Shown here piece after piece: positions 2,690 to 31,799 of a stretch of 32,000 bases of DNA (the stretch's first letter is position 1; every line of letters begins with the position of its first letter). The DNA is from Candidatus Velamenicoccus archaeovorus. Lineage in GTDB: Bacteria > Omnitrophota > Gorgyraeia > Velamenicoccales > Velamenicoccaceae. Under the pieces are notes generated by a model. That model ran no database searches and was not told where the DNA came from. It saw nothing but the letters and a program-made list of their open reading frames with translations. Location: positions 420,001 to 452,000 of the forward strand of contig NZ_CP019384.1 in assembly GCF_004102945.1 (NCBI RefSeq), read 5' to 3'. A program made the translations under genes and the position numbers.

Positions 2690-3523
2690 ATGCCGATATT
2701 AAAGGATTTTCGTTATCACGCACCTGTTTCCGTTGACGAGGCGCTGGCACTCTTGCGCAAGTGTGAAAAACCGGTCGTTTTGGCCGGCGGAACCTTTGTG
2801 TTGAATACCCTTAAAAAAACCGCCGCTTATCCGACAGATGTCATCGGTCTCAGGAAGATTGCACCGTTGCACGGCATCAGGGATACGGCAAGGGAGACGG
2901 CGATCGGCAGCATGACGACGCTGGCCGAGATTGCATCGTCTCCCGTCATCCGTGAGCATTTTGCGGTTTTGGCCGAAGCTGCGGCCCGTGCGGCGACCAC
3001 CCCTTTACGCCATATGGCGACGATCGGCGGCAACGTGGCGAGCCGTTTCTTCTGGGTCGACCTGCCCGTCGTCCTCATGGCGCTCGGCGCCAAAGCGGCC
3101 TGGTCCGGCGTCAAAACAAAAAAGACATTAACCATCGAAGACTTTCTCGCCCTGACGGGCCAGGAGGCCAGAGGCATCTTGACGGAAATCGTTTTGCCCA
3201 AGAGCGGCCTGACCGGAGTTTATTTCCGCCATACACAGACTATAGAAGTGGATGTCCCTATTGTCGCTATCGCCTTTGCGGCCCGGCGGCAGGCAGATGC
3301 GGTCAAAGACGTACGCTGTATCGTGAATACGACGCTCTCGCGGCCCGTGCGCCTGGCGGGGACGGCGTCTTATTTTGAGACGACGGACATCAAAAAGTGG
3401 AAGGCTGCGGAGGCGGCAGAGGCGCTTCGGGGCGATCTACAGCAGAGCAAGCTCGATGACTACCGCCTGCATTGTCTCTGCGCCGATCTGGAATTGTTGA
3501 TCGGCAAATTCAAACAAACATGA
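2690..3523 (+). CDS. Xanthine dehydrogenase/CO dehydrogenase-family FAD-binding (medium) subunit
   Basis: 277 aa with LAGGTFVL (the AGGT FAD-binding motif) near the N-terminus. Size and position (first in a medium-small-large order) match CoxM/XdhB-like subunits. The stop overlaps the next start (ATGA at 3520-3523). Confidence 0.8.
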   Translation: MPILKDFRYHAPVSVDEALALLRKCEKPVVLAGGTFVLNTLKKTAAYPTDVIGLRKIAPLHGIRDTARETAIGSMTTLAEIASSPVIREHFAVLAEAAARAATTPLRHMATIGGNVASRFFWVDLPVVLMALGAKAAWSGVKTKKTLTIEDFLALTGQEARGILTEIVLPKSGLTGVYFRHTQTIEVDVPIVAIAFAARRQADAVKDVRCIVNTTLSRPVRLAGTASYFETTDIKKWKAAEAAEALRGDLQQSKLDDYRLHCLCADLELLIGKFKQT

Positions 3524-8999: not shown

Positions 9000-9195
9000 G
9001 AATGAAGGAATAAACGTTTATCCCTCGTCTCAACGCTTGTCAATTTTTCCAGGAGGGCCTGGCTATCTTCGCTAGCCGGCCACTCGGAAAAATTGTCTGC
9101 GCAGACTCGGGATTAACCCAGAAAGGGTAGACCTCCGCATTCCACATAGCGGAGGGCCTAATTTTGCAAGGAAGTTTCTAAAAGGAGCAAAATTA
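9000..9195 (+). repeat. Modular hairpin repeat, copy 2 (L module, long hairpin, one 45-nt unit, terminal hairpin abutting the pfkB-family ATG)
   Basis: L module starts at 9006. The long hairpin base is CAATTTTTCC (9041-9050) / GGAAAAATTG (9086-9095). The palindrome GTCTGCGCAGAC follows. The 45-nt unit is 9115-9159. The terminal stem is TAATTTTGC (9159-9167) / GCAAAATTA (9187-9195). Confidence 0.8.
9171..9189 (+). repeat. Right copy of the perfect 19-bp direct repeat; contains the SD of the kinase gene
   Basis: GAAGTTTCTAAAAGGAGCA is identical to 8981-8999. Confidence 0.9.
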
Positions 9196-16489: not shown

Positions 16490-16749
16490 TTAAGGAATAA
16501 ATCTTGCCCCTTGCGTTAACGCTTGAAAATTTTTCCAGGGCGAGCCGGAAAAATTTTCGGCGCACGCTCGGGGTTAACCCAGAAAGGGTAGGTCTCCGCA
16601 TTCCACATAGAGGAGGACCTAACCCAGAAAGGGTAGGTCTCCGCATGCCGCAGAAAGCGGCATACTGGCTCTTCCGATTGAGCCAGGTCATCCACATAGC
16701 GGAGGGCCTAATTTTGCGATGAAATAACCTAAAAAAAGGGGCAAAATTA
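16490..16749 (+). repeat. Modular hairpin repeat, copy 3 (L module, minimal long hairpin, one 45-nt unit plus one expanded unit, terminal hairpin abutting the murI ATG)
   Basis: The L module is TTAAGGAATAAATCTTGCCCCTTGCGTTAACGCTTG. A perfect 12-bp stem pairs GAAAATTTTTCC (16525-16536) with GGAAAAATTTTC (16547-16558). The plain unit is 16576-16620. The expanded unit 16621-16709 has nested hairpins ATGCCGC/GCGGCAT and CTGGCTC/GAGCCAG. The terminal stem is TAATTTTGC (16709-16717) / GCAAAATTA (16741-16749). Confidence 0.85.
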
Positions 16750-19676: not shown

Positions 19677-20512
19677 GAAAGATTTCATCCCAGGCGATCC
19701 GTGAATGCGTCAGTCGTCTTGTCTTGGAGGCCAATGTCCGCCTTAGGGGCGATGTGCGCCGCGCGATTTCGGCTGCGGCGGCCAGAGAAACCTCGGCCCG
19801 GGGCCGCAGGATCCTGCAGGAGCTCCTTGAAAATGCGAAGGTCGCCCGGCACGACAACCTGGCCTTATGTCAGGATACCGGCCTGCCTGTCGTTTTCGTC
19901 GAGATCGGCCCCGATGTGGATGTGAGCGGTGTTAACGTGACAGGGGCCGTGCAGGAAGGCGTGGCCCGAGGGTATCGAGAGGGTTTCTTCAGGGATTCTA
20001 TCGTCGCAGACCCTTTGCGTCGGGGAAAACCGGGTTTCGGGCCGTGTATCGTGCATACGTCGTTTGTCCGTAGCAAAGGGTTAAAGGTGACGCTCTTGCC
20101 TAAAGGGTTCGGTTGCGAGAACAAGACGCAGCTCAAGATGATGCCGCCCACGGCCGATGCAAAAGACATAGAGGATTTCATCGTTGAGGCTGTCAAAGAT
20201 ACCGGACCGGACGCTTGCCCGCCTTATATCGTCGGCGTCGGCATCGGAGGTAGCTCGGATTACGCCTGTCAGTTGGCCAAGGAAGCGCTTTTGCGGCCCA
20301 TTGACAAGAGGAGCCGCGCCCCGCATGTGGCGCGCATGGAAAAAGAACTCATCCAAAGGCTCAACCGTCTGGGCATCGGCCCGATGGGGCTTGGTGGTAA
20401 GACGACGGTCCTGGGCGTCAATATCTTGTTGTATCCCACTCATATCGCAGGTCTCCCCGTATGTGTCAATATCAGCTGTCATGTCTTAAGGAGCGCCAGT
20501 GAAATCCTTTAG
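19673..20512 (+). CDS. Fe-S hydro-lyase alpha subunit (class I fumarate hydratase / tartrate dehydratase family)
   Basis: 279 aa with LCQDTGLPVVFVEIG and GVGIGGSSD motifs of the class I fumarase N-terminal domain. The stop TAG is at 20510-20512. Confidence 0.85.
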   Translation: MRKISSQAIRECVSRLVLEANVRLRGDVRRAISAAAARETSARGRRILQELLENAKVARHDNLALCQDTGLPVVFVEIGPDVDVSGVNVTGAVQEGVARGYREGFFRDSIVADPLRRGKPGFGPCIVHTSFVRSKGLKVTLLPKGFGCENKTQLKMMPPTADAKDIEDFIVEAVKDTGPDACPPYIVGVGIGGSSDYACQLAKEALLRPIDKRSRAPHVARMEKELIQRLNRLGIGPMGLGGKTTVLGVNILLYPTHIAGLPVCVNISCHVLRSASEIL

Positions 20513-20732
20513 CCCAGAAAGGGCAGGTCTCCGCATTCCACATAGAGGAGGACCTAACCCAGAAAGGGTAGGTCTCCGCATGCCACATAGAGGAGGACCT
20601 AACCCAGAAAGGGTAGGTCTCCGCATGCCGCAGAAAGCGGCACCCCGCTTTAATAGGATAAGCGGGTGCGTCCCGCTGGACGGCATACTGGCTCATCCGA
20701 TTGAGCCAGGTAATCCGCATAGCGGAGGGCCT
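20511..20732 (+). repeat. Modular hairpin repeat, copy 4 (three 45-nt-type units only, the last one expanded), filling the fumarase alpha/beta gap
   Basis: Units at 20511-20555 and 20556-20600 differ by 1-2 nt from 16576-16620. The expanded unit 20601-20732 contains extra nested hairpins (CACCCCGCTT...AAGCGGGTG; CTGGCTC...GAGCCAG). Confidence 0.85.
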
Positions 20733-21278: not shown

Positions 21279-21991
21279 ATCGTTCCGATGGCCGTTCGAC
21301 GGATATGTTGAGAAAGGTGAAGGTGACGCGTAAATTCCTCAAGCACGCCGAAGGGTCGTGCTTGATCGAGGTCGGCGAGACGAAGGTCATTTGTTCGGCA
21401 AGCGTCGAAGAGACAGTACCGCTTTTTTTGAAGGGTAAGAATGAAGGGTGGGTCACGGCCGAGTACGGAATGCTGCCGCGTTCCTGCGAGACGCGCGTCA
21501 ACCGCGAGAAGCAGAGATCCGGCCGCACGTTTGAGATCCAGCGGCTGGTCGGCAGGTCTCTGCGGACGGCCGTGGCCATGCGCGAACTGGGGGAGAGGAC
21601 CATCACCCTCGACTGCGACGTCATCCAGGCCGATGGCGGCACGAGGACCGCGTCCATCACGGGGAGCTTTATCGCGCTGGTCGATTGCCTCGACGTCATG
21701 AGAAAGCGCAAGATGATCCGGCGCATCCCGATCACGGATTTCGTCGCCGCGACCAGCGTCGGCATCGTCGACGGGGCCACCCTGTTGGATCTGACATACG
21801 AAGAGGATTCGAAAGCGGAAGTCGACATGAACGTCGTCATGGTCTCCAGCGGCAGCTTCATCGAGATCCAGGGCACGGCGGAACGCAAGCCGTTTTCCAA
21901 GGAACAGATGGATGTGCTCCTGGGGCTGGCCCAAAAAGGCATTACGCGGCTTATCGAGATGCAGAAAGACCTGCTGAAAGACGTGCAATAA
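21275..21991 (+). CDS. rph: Ribonuclease PH
   Basis: 238 aa with [44 protein letters not shown] and [18 protein letters not shown], which are canonical for RNase PH. Confidence 0.93.
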
Positions 21992-26179: not shown

Positions 26180-26207
26180 CAATTTTTTGCGCCAGAGCAA
26201 AAAATTG
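26180..26207 (+). other. Perfect 11-bp A/T-rich hairpin immediately after tRNA-Pro
   Basis: CAATTTTTTGC-gccaga-GCAAAAAATTG. The 3' arm is also the first 11 nt of the tandem repeat unit. No U-tract follows. Confidence 0.5.
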
Positions 26208-26395
26208 TCGGGTGCCGATGAGGCCGTTGCGAGGCGATAAGCCGAGCAGGCCAAAATCGGCGCCGACACCTCGGTGTGTTTTTCTGACAAGCAAAAAATT
26301 ATCGGGTGCCGATGAGGCCGTCGCGAGCCGAGTGCGCAAGCCTCTTCGCAGAGGATAAGGCGAGCAGGCCGATTTGGCCCCGGACCTTGATGTTG
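26197..26395 (+). repeat. Tandem direct repeat (two units, ~94-bp period) between tRNA-Pro and tRNA-Arg
   Basis: Unit starts at 26197 and 26291 share GCAAAAAATTRTCGGGTGCCGATGAGGCCGTYGCGAG (35/37) and ...GATAAGSCGAGCAGGCC. The second unit has a ~25-nt insertion containing the CCTCT-tcgc-AGAGG hairpin. Confidence 0.8.
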
Positions 26396-26461
26396 AAAAA
26401 ATTGATAAGTTATACACCCGGCGCTTATTCGGAATAGCGCCGGTGCAAAATATCCTGTTTT

Positions 26462-26538
26462 GCGCCCGTAGCTCAACTGGATAGAGCACCTGCCTTCTAA
26501 GCCGGTTGTTGGCCGTTCGATTCGGCCCGGGCGCACCA
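26462..26538 (+). tRNA. tRNA-Arg (anticodon UCU), CCA encoded
   Basis: Manual cloverleaf: acceptor GCGCCCG/CGGGCGC, D arm GCTC-AACTGGATA-GAGC, anticodon loop CTTCTAA (one T-C mismatch in the stem), T arm GGCCG-TTCGATT-CGGCC, then ACCA. Confidence 0.88.
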
Positions 26539-26548
26539 TATTTCGACC

Positions 26549-27746: not shown

Positions 27747-27992
27747 ATGTGGTATGTTTATATTATTGAATGCAAAGAAGGGTCGTTCTATACAGGGATT
27801 ACGAATAATCTTAAGGTCAGAATAGGGCAACACAACCGTGGTCATGGCTGTCGGTTTACTAAATTCCGCATTCCCGTTAAATTGTTATATCATGAGATTT
27901 TTCCATCCAGGGAAGCAGCTTTGAAGCGAGAGGCTGAAATCAAAGGCTGGACAAGAGAACGGAAATTGGCGCTCATTGCGGAAAGGCTGTAG
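27747..27992 (+). CDS. Small GIY-YIG nuclease-superfamily protein (UPF0213/YhbQ-like)
   Basis: 81 aa. YVYIIECKEGSFYTGITNNLKVRIGQHN and REAALKREAEIKGWTRERKLALI form the classic short GIY-YIG pattern. Confidence 0.8.
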   Translation: MWYVYIIECKEGSFYTGITNNLKVRIGQHNRGHGCRFTKFRIPVKLLYHEIFPSREAALKREAEIKGWTRERKLALIAERL

Positions 27993-28063
27993 ATTTATTG
28001 CATTTTGGTAAGGCCCTTTACTTATTCTTTGCATTGTGGGAAGGCTCTTCGTTTCACTCAGAG

Positions 28064-28111
28064 CCACCATGATGCAAGGTTGAAATTCCTGAATTTGTTG
28101 CATCATGGTGG
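28064..28111 (+). other. Perfect 14-bp hairpin in the tRNA-His 5' leader, overlapping G-1 to +4 of the tRNA
   Basis: CCACCATGATGCAA (28064-28077) pairs with TTGCATCATGGTGG (28098-28111) across a 20-nt loop. Confidence 0.6.
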
Positions 28112-28181
28112 GTATAGCTCAGCTTGGTAGAGCGCTTGACTGTGGCTCAAGTTGTCGCGGGTTCGAATCCCGTTACCCACC
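28107..28181 (+). tRNA. tRNA-His (anticodon GUG) with genome-encoded G-1
   Basis: Manual cloverleaf: G-1 + GTGGGTA/TACCCAC acceptor with discriminator C opposite G-1, D arm GCTC-AGCTTGGTA-GAGC, anticodon arm CTTGA-CTGTGGC-TCAAG, T arm GCGGG-TTCGAAT-CCCGT. CCA is not encoded. Confidence 0.92.
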
Positions 28182-28183
28182 CT
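28169..28183 (+). repeat. Left direct repeat (putative attL) = 3' end of tRNA-His
   Basis: CCCGTTACCCACCCT matches CCTGTAACCCACCCT at 30654-30668 at 13 of 15 positions, and the last 9 nt are identical. Confidence 0.65.
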
Positions 28184-28303
28184 TTATTGTTTTAGGAGAA
28201 CTGAGGTTCGGTAACATAAAAAGAAAGGAGATGATGGTTCTATTTTTGTCATAAAAATTAGAATTATCGTTTCCTTTTTTTTGTTCAAAGGGGAGTGAGC
28301 TTT

Positions 28304-29677
28304 ATGAAAAAACAAATAGTTAATTATCAAGATAAGTGGGAAGAAAATAAAGTGAAGGTAGATGACCTTAATTTAGATGTTAATAATATTCGTCTTGAAA
28401 TAAAACATGAATCTGAGAAAGAAATAGCAAATGATCTTTTTATTAACGAAGATGCGATGGACATACTCGAAAATATTTATGAAAATGGCTTTTTCCCAGA
28501 TGAGTCGCCTATTGTTATTAAGGAAAATAACAAGCTTGTTGTTCTTGAAGGTAATCGAAGAGTAGTTTCCTTGAAGGCGATGGTTCATCCTGAAATCGCT
28601 CCAGAAAAATACGCTTCAAAAATTAAGAAAATGATGGAAGGGCGTTTGCCAATAACAGATATTTTAGTGCGTGTAGCAACTTCTAGGGACGAAGCAATGG
28701 AATATTTGTCTGCCAAACATACAAAGACTACAAGGAGGCCATGGAGTGCTTTAAGGCGGGCATATTTTTATTATGCACAGAAAGAGCGGGGGCAAGCAGT
28801 TACAGTCTTGATGGATAGATATAAAGGTGTAGATATACCGGCTTATATACGTATGTTCGAAATGCATAATGTTGCAAAGTCATTAAAGAATATTCCAGAA
28901 GAAATCAGAAAGAAAATAGCGAATAAGGGAGTTTTTAATATAACTACTCTTGAAAGGCTCTATTCTGATAAATATGTTCAACAAAAACTAGGCATAGATT
29001 TTGATAAAACTACGGGTGAGGTTAGCCTTCCTATTAATGCTTCGTTCGATAAAGTTTTTTCTAAGGTAGTTTCTGATATTGTTTCAGGTGTGGCCACTTC
29101 TCGTAAATGGCTTTCTCATGATGAGGATAGAAAGAAATATATTGATTCTGTTATTTCTGAGATTCTTGAGGGCAAAGAAATTGATACTAGAACAAAGAAA
29201 TCAGCTTCAGAGTTTAAAGCTATTAGCTATAAAAAGAAAAGGAAATCCTTGGTTGAGAAATCTTTTGTATGTACTCTAGATGCCCCAGGAATTGGTCGAG
29301 TTTTATGGGAGCTTCAAAATCTTGAATACAAAAGTTTTCCAAATGCCGCAGCAGATTTGTTGCGAACATTTTTGGAAAAAACTTTGAAAAAATACTTAGA
29401 GCAATTAAATGCTTTACCAAATCCGCGCAGAACAGGTGGTTATATTTATCTTGATGATGTGCTTACCAAGATGAGTAGTGATTTGCAGAAATTATCAAAA
29501 CATCAAATTGTTCAAATAATTGCAGAGATAAAGAATAATAAATGGTATTTGGAAAGCATTAACCATAATCCTGACATTTTTGCAGTAGAATATAGGGTTG
29601 AAGAAGCTTGGGATTTAATATGCCCACTGGTTAAATTTATTTTTAACGAGTGCAAAAAGAAAGTTGAGTCGAAATAG
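28304..29677 (+). CDS. ParB/Srx-like N-terminal domain protein with a large uncharacterised C-terminal region
   Basis: 457 aa from ATG 28304, with AAAGGGGA upstream; the track start is GTG 28295. The N-terminal VKVDDLNLDVNNIRLE and DILENIYENGFFPDESPIVIKENNKLVVLEGNRRVVSLKAM match the ParB-nuclease-like pattern, including the GxxRR arginine box. I recognise no motif in the remaining ~330 aa. Confidence 0.6.
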   Translation: MKKQIVNYQDKWEENKVKVDDLNLDVNNIRLEIKHESEKEIANDLFINEDAMDILENIYENGFFPDESPIVIKENNKLVVLEGNRRVVSLKAMVHPEIAPEKYASKIKKMMEGRLPITDILVRVATSRDEAMEYLSAKHTKTTRRPWSALRRAYFYYAQKERGQAVTVLMDRYKGVDIPAYIRMFEMHNVAKSLKNIPEEIRKKIANKGVFNITTLERLYSDKYVQQKLGIDFDKTTGEVSLPINASFDKVFSKVVSDIVSGVATSRKWLSHDEDRKKYIDSVISEILEGKEIDTRTKKSASEFKAISYKKKRKSLVEKSFVCTLDAPGIGRVLWELQNLEYKSFPNAAADLLRTFLEKTLKKYLEQLNALPNPRRTGGYIYLDDVLTKMSSDLQKLSKHQIVQIIAEIKNNKWYLESINHNPDIFAVEYRVEEAWDLICPLVKFIFNECKKKVESK

Positions 29678-29679
29678 GC

Positions 29680-30522
29680 ATGCCTTTTTATTCTCCATTA
29701 AGATATCCAGGTGGAAAAAATAAGCTAGCAGAGTTTATTGCTTCATTATGTGTAAATAATAAAATAAATAAGTGTTATGTTGAACCTTATGCTGGTGGTG
29801 CATCGGTCGCTTTGTATCTTTTGCTAAACGGTTATGTTGAAGAGGTGATTATAAATGATTACGATAGGGCTATCTATTCTTTTTGGTATTCTATATTAAA
29901 TTACACGGAAAGATTTTGTGAAAAAATTAAGAATACCGAAGTTAATCTTGCGAACTGGAATAAGTTTAAGAATATCCATTCTAAGAAAGAAGAGGCCAAT
30001 CTTTTTGATTTAGGATTTGCGACCTTTTTTCTTAATCGTACAAATCGCTCTGGTATTATTACCGGAGGACCCATCGGCGGAATGATGCAAGAAGGAAAAT
30101 ATAAAATTGATTGTCGTTTCAATGACGAAAACCTCATTAAAAGAATCCAGTTTATAGCAATTCATAAAAAAAATATTCGATTATATATGATGGATGCTTT
30201 GTGTCTTATTGAAAAGATGCAAAATGAAAGGAAAGTGAATAATTTATTTTTTTATTTTGATCCACCGTATTATTCAAAAGGACCATTATTGTATATGAGT
30301 CATTATGAACACGATGATCATAAAAAATTAAGTGAAGCCATTAAAAGAATTAATAAATCAAAATGGGTTGTTTCTTATGACAATACAAGAGAAATTAGAG
30401 AATTGTATGCTACTTGTGAAAAGAGAGAATATTTTTTGCTTCATACTGCATATAAAGTCAAAAAAGGTGAAGAGATTTTATTTATCTCTAAGGGTTTGCT
30501 AGTGCCAGATAAGGTAAATTAA
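29680..30522 (+). CDS. Dam-family (D12 class) N6-adenine DNA methyltransferase
   Basis: SPLRYPGGKNKL, the SAM-binding motif I (YVEPYAGGASVAL) and the catalytic motif IV (FYFDPPYY). The motif I-to-DPPY order is the alpha-class order. The start is 3 nt after the upstream stop. Confidence 0.88.
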   Translation: MPFYSPLRYPGGKNKLAEFIASLCVNNKINKCYVEPYAGGASVALYLLLNGYVEEVIINDYDRAIYSFWYSILNYTERFCEKIKNTEVNLANWNKFKNIHSKKEEANLFDLGFATFFLNRTNRSGIITGGPIGGMMQEGKYKIDCRFNDENLIKRIQFIAIHKKNIRLYMMDALCLIEKMQNERKVNNLFFYFDPPYYSKGPLLYMSHYEHDDHKKLSEAIKRINKSKWVVSYDNTREIRELYATCEKREYFLLHTAYKVKKGEEILFISKGLLVPDKVN

Positions 30523-30653
30523 AAACTTAAGGAGTTAGATTGTTCGTAAATTGGAATTTCGAAGTCGTAATGCCTAATTTTTGGATTATTCTAGCTGAAA
30601 ACTAAAAAATATACTAGTATTGTCAATAAAAGGGAAGAAGTTCTGTCTTTTAC

Positions 30654-30668
30654 CCTGTAACCCACCCT
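30654..30668 (+). repeat. Right direct repeat (putative attR), a partial copy of the tRNA-His 3' end
   Basis: CCTGTAACCCACCCT, 13/15 identical to 28169-28183. GC content returns to host level just downstream. Confidence 0.65.
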
Positions 30669-30704: not shown

Positions 30705-31799
30705 ATGACAAAAACACGAGGGATGAGGATTGGGGCGGTGGTGATTTTCTTTTTGGCCTTGACGGCGGGCGTGTCTTCGGCCTGCAGTGATTTTCAGCTC
30801 AAAGCCAAAGACGGCACCATTGTGATCGGCCGTTCGATGGAGTTTCCCGTTGACCTGCATTCGCGCGTGGTCATCGTCCCCCGAGGCAGGCAGTTTGTTA
30901 GCGTCAACGACAAGGGGGTCAAAGGGACCAGTTGGGTCAATAAATACGGTTTCCTGGGGATCGATGCCTATGGAGCCAAGAACACCTATGTCGAGGGTTT
31001 CAACGAGAAGGGGCTGGCTTTTGACGCGCTGATGTTTACGGGCGCCGAGTATCAAGAAGCCGTTGCCGGCCGATTCGTCACGATCAGCGATTTTGGCTCC
31101 TGGGTTATGGGGAATTTTGCGACAGTCGATGAGGTGAAGGCGGCTCTGTCCGATGTCAATGTCGCCGGCACGCGTCTCAAAGAAGCCGGTGGTGAGATAT
31201 ATATGCACATCGCCCTGCATGATGCCGGCGGAAAGAACCTGGTCATCGAGTTTATCGACGGCAAGGTCCATGTTTACGATAATCCGCTGGGCGTGATGAC
31301 GAACCGTCCGGATTTTTCCTGGCAGATCAACAACCTGCGCAACTATATCAATCTCGATGCGCACGACAGAAAAGACAAGGAGCTCGGCGGCCTTAAGATC
31401 GAACCCACGGGCGTGGGCAGCGGCATGCTTGGTTTGCCCGGCGATTGGACGCCGCCGTCGCGTTTTGTCCGTCTGGCGCTTAGCGTGGAGGCGGCCCTGC
31501 CGCCGGCGGATGCCGAGGAAGCCGTGAACCTGGCCCAGCATCTTTTAAACATCGTCGACATTCCCAAGGGGGTCATCAAAGAAAACCCTGAGCCTTTTGT
31601 TACCCTGGAAGGTTATGCCCAATGGGTGGTGATCAAGGATTTGACCAATCTTGTTTTGTATTATAAGACCTATGAAGATTCCGCCTTAAAGAAAGTAGAT
31701 CTAAAGCGTTTCGGTTTGTCTCCGGACAAGAAAGAGCTGTCGATCGCCATCGATGACCGCCGTCAGATCTTTATCGACGTCAGCGGAGACCTCAAATAG
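30705..31799 (+). CDS. Secreted choloylglycine hydrolase / penicillin V acylase-family Ntn-hydrolase
   Basis: The signal peptide ends ...TAGVSSA and is followed by CSDFQLKAKDGTIVIGRSMEF, which gives the N-terminal nucleophile Cys context. MTNRPDFSWQINNLRNY is typical of the CBAH family. Confidence 0.78.
   Translation: MTKTRGMRIGAVVIFFLALTAGVSSACSDFQLKAKDGTIVIGRSMEFPVDLHSRVVIVPRGRQFVSVNDKGVKGTSWVNKYGFLGIDAYGAKNTYVEGFNEKGLAFDALMFTGAEYQEAVAGRFVTISDFGSWVMGNFATVDEVKAALSDVNVAGTRLKEAGGEIYMHIALHDAGGKNLVIEFIDGKVHVYDNPLGVMTNRPDFSWQINNLRNYINLDAHDRKDKELGGLKIEPTGVGSGMLGLPGDWTPPSRFVRLALSVEAALPPADAEEAVNLAQHLLNIVDIPKGVIKENPEPFVTLEGYAQWVVIKDLTNLVLYYKTYEDSALKKVDLKRFGLSPDKKELSIAIDDRRQIFIDVSGDLK

Follow-up and report, generated by a model that had tools for sequence, protein, structure and literature searches.

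The genome of Candidatus Velamenicoccus archaeovorus, an ultra-small, genome-reduced, predatory bacterium of the phylum Omnitrophota, appears to carry a member of the anti-phage system PD-lambda-5 immediately behind a tRNA-His gene. The locus lies in the stretch of 32,000 nucleotides (nt) analyzed here (the window), in which an islet rich in A and T (AT) starts at the tRNA 3' end and holds only two genes, referred to as gene A (a ParB-like protein of 457 amino acids, aa) and gene B (an N6-adenine DNA methyltransferase of 280 aa). There is little doubt that these two genes represent a PD-lambda-5 system, and the whole reading, i.e., a horizontally acquired PD-lambda-5 pair at a tRNA-His site that repeatedly takes up foreign and often defence-related DNA, is considered likely. 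The pairing as such is not new, as PD-lambda-5 has already been published and PADLOC models of it exist.

Assignment of the gene pair to PD-lambda-5

Both proteins matched PADLOC models of PD-lambda-5 over their full length, beyond the ParB N-terminal domain. Protein A matched PD-Lambda-5_A (PDLC03998) with an expectation (E) value of 1.7e-49, and 23 models of that name in all, while protein B matched PD-Lambda-5_B (PDLC04018) at 4.2e-116 over positions 2-278 of 291, a result that beats every generic MTase_II model for this protein (MTase_II, 9.8e-90). The locus thus shows each of the sequence-level features of PD-lambda-5, namely the A profile, the B profile, adjacent and co-oriented genes in the order A then B, and a ParB N-terminal domain. 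Both genes are full length, with the family-invariant residues intact. Protein B belongs to the alpha class of Dam-family (D12) methyltransferases, with matches to Pfam MethyltransfD12 (PF02086; 1.6e-22), TIGR00571 dam (3.5e-17, under the model cutoff) and PDB entry 7m6b (5e-14), and both of its signature motifs are intact: motif I, EPYAGGAS, at residues 35-42 (nt 29782-29805), and motif IV, DPPY, at residues 194-197 (nt 30259-30270).

A first-pass annotation of the window, made from the sequence alone, had described a ParB/Srx-like protein coupled to a D12 N6-adenine methylase and had proposed an anti-phage module. The methylase is borne out by the Pfam match, the ParB/Srx-like protein by structural comparison with ParB-CTPase-fold proteins, and the anti-phage module by the PADLOC matches to PD-Lambda-5_A and _B. 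Its statement that the pairing could not be matched to any described system no longer holds, since the profile search with PADLOC matches it to the published PD-lambda-5, and its 3-nt gap between the genes is in fact a spacer of 2 nt (TAG-gc-ATG).

Vassallo et al. (2022, Nat Microbiol; PMC9519451) recovered PD-lambda-5 from E. coli ECOR7 by functional selection, labelled it "ParB/HEPN, methyltransferase" and proposed a "compacted RM+Abi" system. Expressed from its native promoter, the ECOR7 pair affected plating for nine of 10 phages, with the strongest protection on T-even phages (PMC9519451). Cloning required a delta-mrr host (PMC9519451), which suggests that B is an active DNA methylase in the E. 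coli system.

Composition and boundaries of the islet

The islet has a G+C (GC) content of 0.321, compared with 0.544 in the remainder of the window. In consecutive 300-nt segments, GC was 0.26-0.41 across 28200-30600 and 0.47-0.58 on either side, and the drop begins immediately 3' of tRNA-His and is over by ~30700. The same difference was observed at third codon positions, where GC was 0.266 in gene A and 0.238 in gene B and 0.62-0.72 in flanking and distant host genes. The islet DNA is therefore compositionally foreign. Given this composition and the different DNA found at the same site in the closest relatives, acquisition of the islet by horizontal transfer at a tRNA-linked hot spot is very likely, in agreement with the first-pass annotation, which had placed an AT-rich foreign islet at the tRNA-His 3' end.

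Genes A and B are the only genes between the two repeats that bound the islet. Domains of integrases, transposases and classical restriction endonucleases were found neither in the islet, as had already been noted at first pass, nor in the ten larger open reading frames (ORFs) scanned elsewhere in the window, which are housekeeping genes. No Rfam family was matched within the islet, a promoter and terminator scan yielded no more sites than shuffled sequence, and a convincing terminator was not found in the non-coding tail. The coordinates of the features are given in Table 1.

Table 1. Features of the tRNA-His locus (positions in the window)
Feature	Position	Strand	Evidence
tRNA-His (GTG), 3' end = insertion point	28108-28182	+	ARAGORN; Rfam tRNA, 67.6 bits (28108-28181)
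attL-like core, last 14 nt of tRNA-His plus 1 nt, CCCGTTACCCACCCT	28169-28183	+	
AT-rich islet with only the two genes assigned to PD-lambda-5	28183-30653	+	Composition (GC 0.32), ORFs
Gene A, PD-Lambda-5_A homologue	28304-29677	+	PADLOC; 100% match to P0001
Gene A, N-terminal ParB/Srx (ParB-CTPase fold) domain	28304-28700	+	Foldseek, conservation
Gene A, central helical region, first part aligning with the ParB DNA-binding domain	28701-29266	+	Foldseek
Gene A, C-terminal HEPN-like helical bundle	29267-29674	+	Separate domain model, Foldseek
Gene B, PD-Lambda-5_B homologue	29680-30522	+	Pfam, PADLOC
AT-rich non-coding islet tail	30523-30653	+	
attR-like decayed copy of the tRNA-His 3' end, CCTGTAACCCACCCT	30654-30668	+	
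Host choloylglycine-hydrolase family gene, outside the element	30705-31799	+	Pfam CBAH, 1.9e-62; GC 0.54

Domain architecture of protein A

Protein A matches BU251_01680 of Ca. Velamenicoccus archaeovorus (1.97-Mb contig) with 100% identity, and its homologues begin at the same Met as the gene A ATG. Searches of Pfam and NCBIfam with this protein returned no match even at an E value of 10, and a profile search of PDB sequences returned nothing meaningful. An AlphaFold2 model built on 30 homologues had a mean predicted local distance difference test (pLDDT) score of 84.9. When this model was compared with the PDB by Foldseek, the first 190-310 alignment columns matched ParB-CTPase-fold proteins, covering the N-terminal domain and the following helical domain, which resembles a helix-turn-helix (HTH) domain. 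The matches included M. xanthus ParB-CTPgammaS (7bnr, 1.9e-4), B. subtilis ParB-CDP (6sdk was also matched), KorB and Noc, with E values of 1.9e-4 to 1e-3 for the ParB-CTPase structures and a probability of 1.00; sulfiredoxin and SbnI appeared lower in the list. The matches in BFVD were phage ParB-like proteins, and those in PHROG were families of unknown function.

Conservation was examined in an alignment of 60 family sequences, down to 23% identity. Invariant positions were D25, N28 and R30 (a box-I-like D-x2-N-x-R), E82-G83-N84-R85-R86 (box II, the phosphate-binding EGNRR, nt 28547-28561), H139, W147 and R218, and positions conserved in at least 90% of the sequences were R267, E336, R354, H421, N422 and W436. 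H139, W147, R218 and R267 fall in the central helical region. One of the 60 members weakly matched HTH_ParB and three weakly matched GmrSD_N (~1e-3); HNH was matched by none.

The C-terminal domain, a bundle of four helices, reached a pLDDT of 89 when modelled alone (residues 322-457). Its best Foldseek neighbours were all HEPN proteins (4nqf, 1wol, 2q00 and MNT-HEPN toxins), with TM scores of 0.54-0.63 and probabilities of 0.82-0.94. Two motifs are present in this domain, PNAxxxLLRxxLE in helix 1 (R354, E358) and [LM][ND]xxxHN near the last helix (H421, N422). A likeness to Csm6 suggested by the full-length Foldseek search was discarded as spurious.

Coupling and distribution of the pair

Gene A is followed by a D12 methylase gene on the same strand in all six homologue lineages checked, which span several phyla and identity levels. 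In the nearest pair, A is 73% and B 66% identical to the window proteins, which argues that A and B co-diverge and travel together. With 4158 representatives of 50%-identity clusters at E <= 1e-3 and 340 at E <= 1e-30, the protein A family is widespread yet missing from Pfam. Some homologue pairs lie inside defence islands (with an HpaII restriction-modification (R-M) system and Vsr, or with MmeI-type and ResIII/T5orf172 genes), and others stand alone amid housekeeping genes in chromosomal, non-prophage contexts. The temperate Marinobacter phage AS1 carries a bona fide pair beside its integrase, with similar PADLOC scores; its B is 38% identical to window B, and protein A is ~24% identical to phage-borne relatives.

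Several variants of the cassette were encountered during this survey. In L036-L039 (6001-9631; source record, Sediminibacterium sp.), A and the D12 methylase are followed by a second full-length A paralogue, which at 24% identity retains DGNRR and HN and matches only the N-terminal part of the PD-Lambda-5_A models. In a Zixibacteria genome of GC ~0.51 (L040, 5070-9237), an AT-rich pair (GC 0.34) occurs by itself. Nested long inverted repeats of 129, 108, 60 and 51 nt with 81-92% complementarity enclose it, and a 163-nt tandem duplication adjoins it. Here the same cassette has another kind of vehicle; terminal inverted repeats were not found at the window islet, in contrast to the Zixibacteria copy. 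At the P2 portal-gene hot spot of Escherichia phage vB_EcoM-12474III (L042, 3480-6516), a 372-aa protein shares only the ParB N-terminal domain with PD-Lambda-5_A and is accompanied by an unrelated 330-aa protein and a C5 (DruM-like) methylase on the opposite strand. The possibility that this is a split PD-lambda-5 was rejected, as its second protein is unrelated to A (hhalign probability 0.3%) and its methylase is of the C5 type, and it was regarded as a related but distinct module.

The tRNA-His site and its duplicated end

The 15-nt core at the tRNA end, CCCGTTACCCACCCT, and its downstream copy, CCTGTAACCCACCCT, are identical at 13/15 positions, and the alignment extends to 16/20. The copy ends 36 nt 5' of the hydrolase ATG and within ~40 nt of the composition boundary. 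Matches to the core with two or fewer mismatches are expected 0.04 times per window on both strands, and a direct copy of this quality in the 2.6 kb downstream arose in one of 5000 composition-matched Markov-1 simulations (analytic expectation, 5e-5). The repeat is therefore significant and not a product of chance (P ~2e-4).

A metagenome scan with the 3' half of the window tRNA-His retrieved ten contigs with an identical tRNA-His. Those with enough upstream sequence have a DUF748 gene and/or a small GIY-YIG gene in common with the window, at 73-87% nucleotide identity. The DNA 3' of tRNA-His is of low GC (0.29-0.50) and different in every contig with enough sequence, and the PD-lambda-5 pair was present in none of them. 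The cargo includes a ~10-kb island with a BglII endonuclease and an MT-A70 methylase, an S24/LexA-like repressor, QueC and a PfkB-nucleoside deoxyribosyltransferase fusion (L044), a 587-aa SIR2 protein that matches the candidate system PDC-S65 at 4.7e-65 (L047), an NTP_transf_8 protein (L049), an HNH_5 protein (L053) and an S-adenosylmethionine (SAM) methylase (L045). These neighbourhoods suggest that the tRNA-His 3' flank is a recurrent hot spot for low-GC, often defence-related cargo in the Velamenicoccus lineage.

The junctions of these contigs clarify how the site is used. In the native flank of L001, L044 and L046, CACCC is followed by CAG and the CCA end is encoded, whereas the window, L045, L047 and L050 read TT after CACCC (TTT in the window, where CCA is not encoded, unlike in the relatives). 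L045, L047 and L050 contain a second, perfect copy (at least 18 nt) of the tRNA end, GAATCCCGTTACCCACCC, 160-191 nt downstream, and in L050 the native flank, CAGTAATATCC, follows this second copy. Such duplications with the native flank behind the second copy are the classical footprint of tRNA 3'-end integration, in which the element's own copy replaces the end and the original is displaced. The window has the same left junction as L045, L047 and L050, with a decayed right copy. The attL/attR-type duplication of the tRNA end proposed at first pass is thus upheld, both by the significance of the repeat in the window and by the perfect copies in these three related contigs. The decay of attR suggests that the islet is now fixed, and it is probably immobile.

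At the right-hand side the comparison was less simple. A genome scan with the hydrolase gene found a tRNA-His nearby in one syntenic relative (L001, whose hydrolase orthologue is 91% identical) and adjacent to the gene in none of 24 other Omnitrophota loci scanned for tRNAs. Look-ups of the exact proteins of the flanking host genes gave no record. The first-pass annotation had called for comparison with an empty site, in which tRNA-His would be directly followed by the hydrolase gene, and no such clean junction was found among the relatives compared.

Some further observations concern the duplicated tRNA end and its surroundings. A third match to the 15-nt core with two mismatches, GCCGTGACCCACCCT, lies at 21445-21459 on the minus strand in GC-rich coding DNA (RNase PH region), and is probably due to chance. 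The segments between the tRNA-end copies of L045 (~90-320), L047 (~430-630) and L050 (~3200-3420; all in tRNA-sense orientation) are GC-rich and 160-190 nt long; those of L045 and L047 have an identical right end of ~50 nt, and no Rfam family was found in the three segments. Minimal remnants or a small mobile unit are two possible explanations for them. Just 5' of tRNA-His, two 26-nt direct repeats (27993-28018 and 28024-28049) are followed by a perfect 14-nt inverted repeat (28064-28077 and 28098-28111), the second arm of which overlaps the first 4 nt of the tRNA gene. Similar CCACCAT(A/G)ATGCA units are also present upstream of the L001 tRNA-His, and these repeats may have a role in 5' processing as a leader structure. 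Further upstream, an 81-aa stand-alone GIY-YIG gene (27747-27992) has a GC of 0.42, under the host level; L001 has this gene too, and the region can be aligned in L044, L046, L048, L049 and L053.

Comparison with known systems

The window pair shares with the ECOR7 pair (RCQ13837.1 and RCQ13838.1) the gene order, in which a ParB-N/HEPN-like protein of 450-500 aa is encoded ahead of a D12 adenine methylase, as well as a compact cassette of ~2.2-2.5 kb on mobile or accessory DNA, the likeness being seen via profile models. It differs in host phylum (Omnitrophota versus Gammaproteobacteria), in its carrier (an integrase-less tRNA-His islet versus a prophage) and in the high divergence of its A protein from phage-borne relatives. 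In the modification-sensing GmrSD/BrxU/SspE family (a DUF262 ParB-like NTPase with a DUF1524 HNH domain), an N-terminal ParB/Srx fold is likewise fused to a C-terminal effector, and the phosphate-binding motif is of the same DGQQR/EGNRR type; however, the effector of that family is a DUF1524 HNH domain and not a HEPN-like bundle, and window A has a ParB-HTH-like middle domain. As window A is paired with a methylase, it probably senses the absence, not the presence, of modification.

Type II R-M systems with Dam-family methylases (DpnII, EcoRV) also combine an alpha-class D12 methylase (FxGxG, DPPY) with a tightly linked partner gene in a mobile, compositionally foreign cassette. In Pfam, NCBIfam and PDB searches, however, window A showed no PD-(D/E)xK, HNH, GIY-YIG or PLD domain, and it has a ParB fold and a HEPN-like domain instead. 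The ParB/Noc/KorB CTPase clamps are the best structural matches to the N-terminal and helical domains of A, with the box I and box II arginines conserved; they differ from it in that A is linked to a methylase and that the published function of its family is defence. A role as a canonical partition ParB was rejected, since A has neither a ParA partner (its neighbours are tRNA-His and the hydrolase gene) nor a C-terminal dimerisation domain. As a mobile element, the islet resembles an integrase-less, att-flanked remnant, as found among tRNA-targeting islands and cis-mobilizable elements (CIMEs; att-flanked and without their own integrase), with which it shares insertion exactly at the tRNA 3' end, a distal direct repeat, foreign composition and tandem or alternative occupancy of the site in relatives. 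It differs from them in its very small size (2.5 kb), in that neither integrase nor excisionase was seen, and in the decay of attR to 13/15.

Possible mechanism and alternative explanations

A mechanism that joins R-M to an effector is put forward tentatively, as a real possibility. B would mark the host chromosome as self by methylating adenines within a short motif, and A would bind DNA via its ParB-like N-terminal domain and its helical domain, with the intact EGNRR pocket binding or hydrolysing a nucleoside triphosphate (NTP) as a switch; ParB-fold proteins are known to bind CTP, ATP or GTP (PMC12704722). On unmarked invading DNA, A might then either nick as a ParB/Srx-fold nickase (some ParB/Srx proteins nick DNA according to Maindola 2014, as cited in PMC10853773) or turn on its C-terminal HEPN-like domain as an RNase, so that the outcome would be restriction backed by abortive infection, as proposed by Vassallo et al. 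Historically, the cassette may have been delivered by a tRNA-targeting integrative element whose integrase was lost or acted in trans. A bolder version, in which A is an NTP-gated ParB-type DNA clamp that reads the methylation mark of B and licenses a non-canonical R...HN HEPN-like effector on unmarked DNA, and in which, separately, the tRNA-His site is served by an unrecognised family of integrase-less, trans-mobilised micro-islets shuttling defence cassettes among ultra-small predatory Omnitrophota, is judged unlikely; if true, the clamp-gated R...HN effector would amount to a class of methylation-dependent immunity with a new mechanism.

Several observations weigh against the reading of the locus as a mobile PD-lambda-5 system with such an effector. 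The HEPN assignment is weak, with Foldseek E values of only 0.3-0.9; the canonical HEPN Rx4-6H motif was not found in the C-terminal domain, where no Arg lies 4-6 residues before H421 and the conserved R354 is in helix 1; none of the 60 family members matched a Pfam HEPN model; and the original HHpred support for HEPN was a probability of only 35%, to DUF4145 (PMC9519451). For these reasons the domain is called HEPN-like by its modelled fold only and is not counted as a HEPN RNase. A classical nuclease catalytic motif is not present in protein A either. For this copy, the support consists of sequence and models, while the phenotype evidence comes from the E. coli ECOR7 pair, and the literature search found no mechanistic study of PD-lambda-5, later papers repeating the original description. 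In addition, the ORFs scanned in the window and in the cargo of the relatives' islands included no integrase, and L001, the closest syntenic relative, has a 262-aa gene of host GC between tRNA-His and the hydrolase gene, so that DNA at the right junction must also have been lost or rearranged in the window lineage.

An alternative to this effector-based mechanism is a plain Type II-like R-M system. In a plain system, A would be a novel ParB/Srx-fold endonuclease cutting unmethylated sites, its C-terminal bundle would serve dimerisation or DNA recognition, and there would be no RNase or abortive arm. The strict linkage of the methylase to A in every lineage checked, the reported nicking by some ParB/Srx proteins, and a C-terminal domain that has neither Rx4-6H nor a significant HEPN sequence match are all in keeping with it. 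However, conservation of R354, E358, H421 and N422 extends to homologues of 23% identity, beyond the usual need of a scaffold, and the fold of the domain is HEPN-like by TM score. Moreover, T-even phage DNA resists most classical R-M, yet the ECOR7 pair protects best against these phages (PMC9519451), a preference that fits poorly with simple restriction of unmethylated sites and is also awkward for any restriction arm of the proposed mechanism. Plain R-M is accordingly regarded as doubtful. A selfish addiction module, acting by post-segregational killing with little or no phage protection in this host, could explain why the pair forms an isolated islet without other mobile-element genes both here and in the Zixibacteria genome, and why the genes are intact despite their foreign composition. 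It is nevertheless held to be improbable, given that the homologous E. coli pair protects broadly from its native promoter (PMC9519451), that homologues often lie in defence islands, and that other defence genes occupy the same tRNA-His site in relatives; addiction and defence are in any case compatible and not mutually exclusive.

Still less credit is given to a non-defensive phage or plasmid relic, in which a ParB-type DNA binder and an orphan methylase would have served partition, regulation or anti-restriction self-methylation before the rest of the element was deleted. Associations of ParB-fold proteins with methylases are common in phages and prophages (PMC12704722), as the BFVD and PHROG matches also indicate, the P2-like phage combines a related ParB-N protein with a methylase of another type (C5), and the missing integrase and decayed attR would be expected of a relic. 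This explanation is very improbable indeed in view of the full-length matches of both proteins to PD-lambda-5 models, the lack of ParA, a parS array or a ParB C-terminal dimerisation domain nearby, the retention of the A-to-B cassette in chromosomal, non-prophage contexts, and the intactness of the genes although attR has decayed. The remaining alternative concerns only the way in which the islet arrived. The tRNA-His flank might be a hot spot of cassette swapping by homologous recombination between conserved flanks, without site-specific integration and with the 13/15 repeat being incidental, and the lack of an integrase among the ORFs scanned in the window and in the relatives' cargo, the variable right flank among relatives and the third two-mismatch match in the window could all be cited for it. 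Against this stand the low chance of a direct copy so close downstream (~2e-4), its position at the composition boundary, and the perfect duplications of the tRNA end in three relatives, in one of which the native, CCA-encoding flank reappears behind the second copy; cassette swapping is therefore thought rather improbable, and delivery by a tRNA-targeting element is preferred.

Implications

With this locus, a defence system that is experimentally validated in E. coli is placed in a very distant host, and the literature search turned up nothing published on phage defence in this bacterium. Useful additions are the host, the hot spot and a more detailed view of the domains, which refine an existing entry and leave the current understanding of PD-lambda-5 unchanged. 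For the family, the conserved positions provide a set of candidate residues (EGNRR, H139, W147, R218, R354, H421 and N422), and it is now apparent that the "HEPN" label of PD-lambda-5 A rests on fold resemblance only. The tRNA-His flank, with its clear att duplications, may also offer a starting point for finding defence cargo in the genomes of uncultured Omnitrophota.

Other observations in the window

Differences between the window and L001 are not restricted to the islet. The interval from tRNA-Pro to the DUF748 gene also differs (26181-26548 in the window, 5680-7067 in L001): that of the window holds tRNA-Arg(tct) at 26462-26538, and that of L001 has no intact tRNA-Arg (a 40-nt match only) and an extra ORF of 185 aa. 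Finally, a dispersed repeat of ~46 nt with an internal hairpin, TTAACCCAGAAAGGGTAGGTCTCCGCATTCCACATAGAGGAGGACC, occurs in the window at ~9113-9165, 16560-16715 and 20505-20645, and also in L044, ~95-140 nt 3' of tRNA-His. It is intergenic and present as a single copy or as 2-3 tandem copies, like a repetitive extragenic palindromic (REP)-type element.

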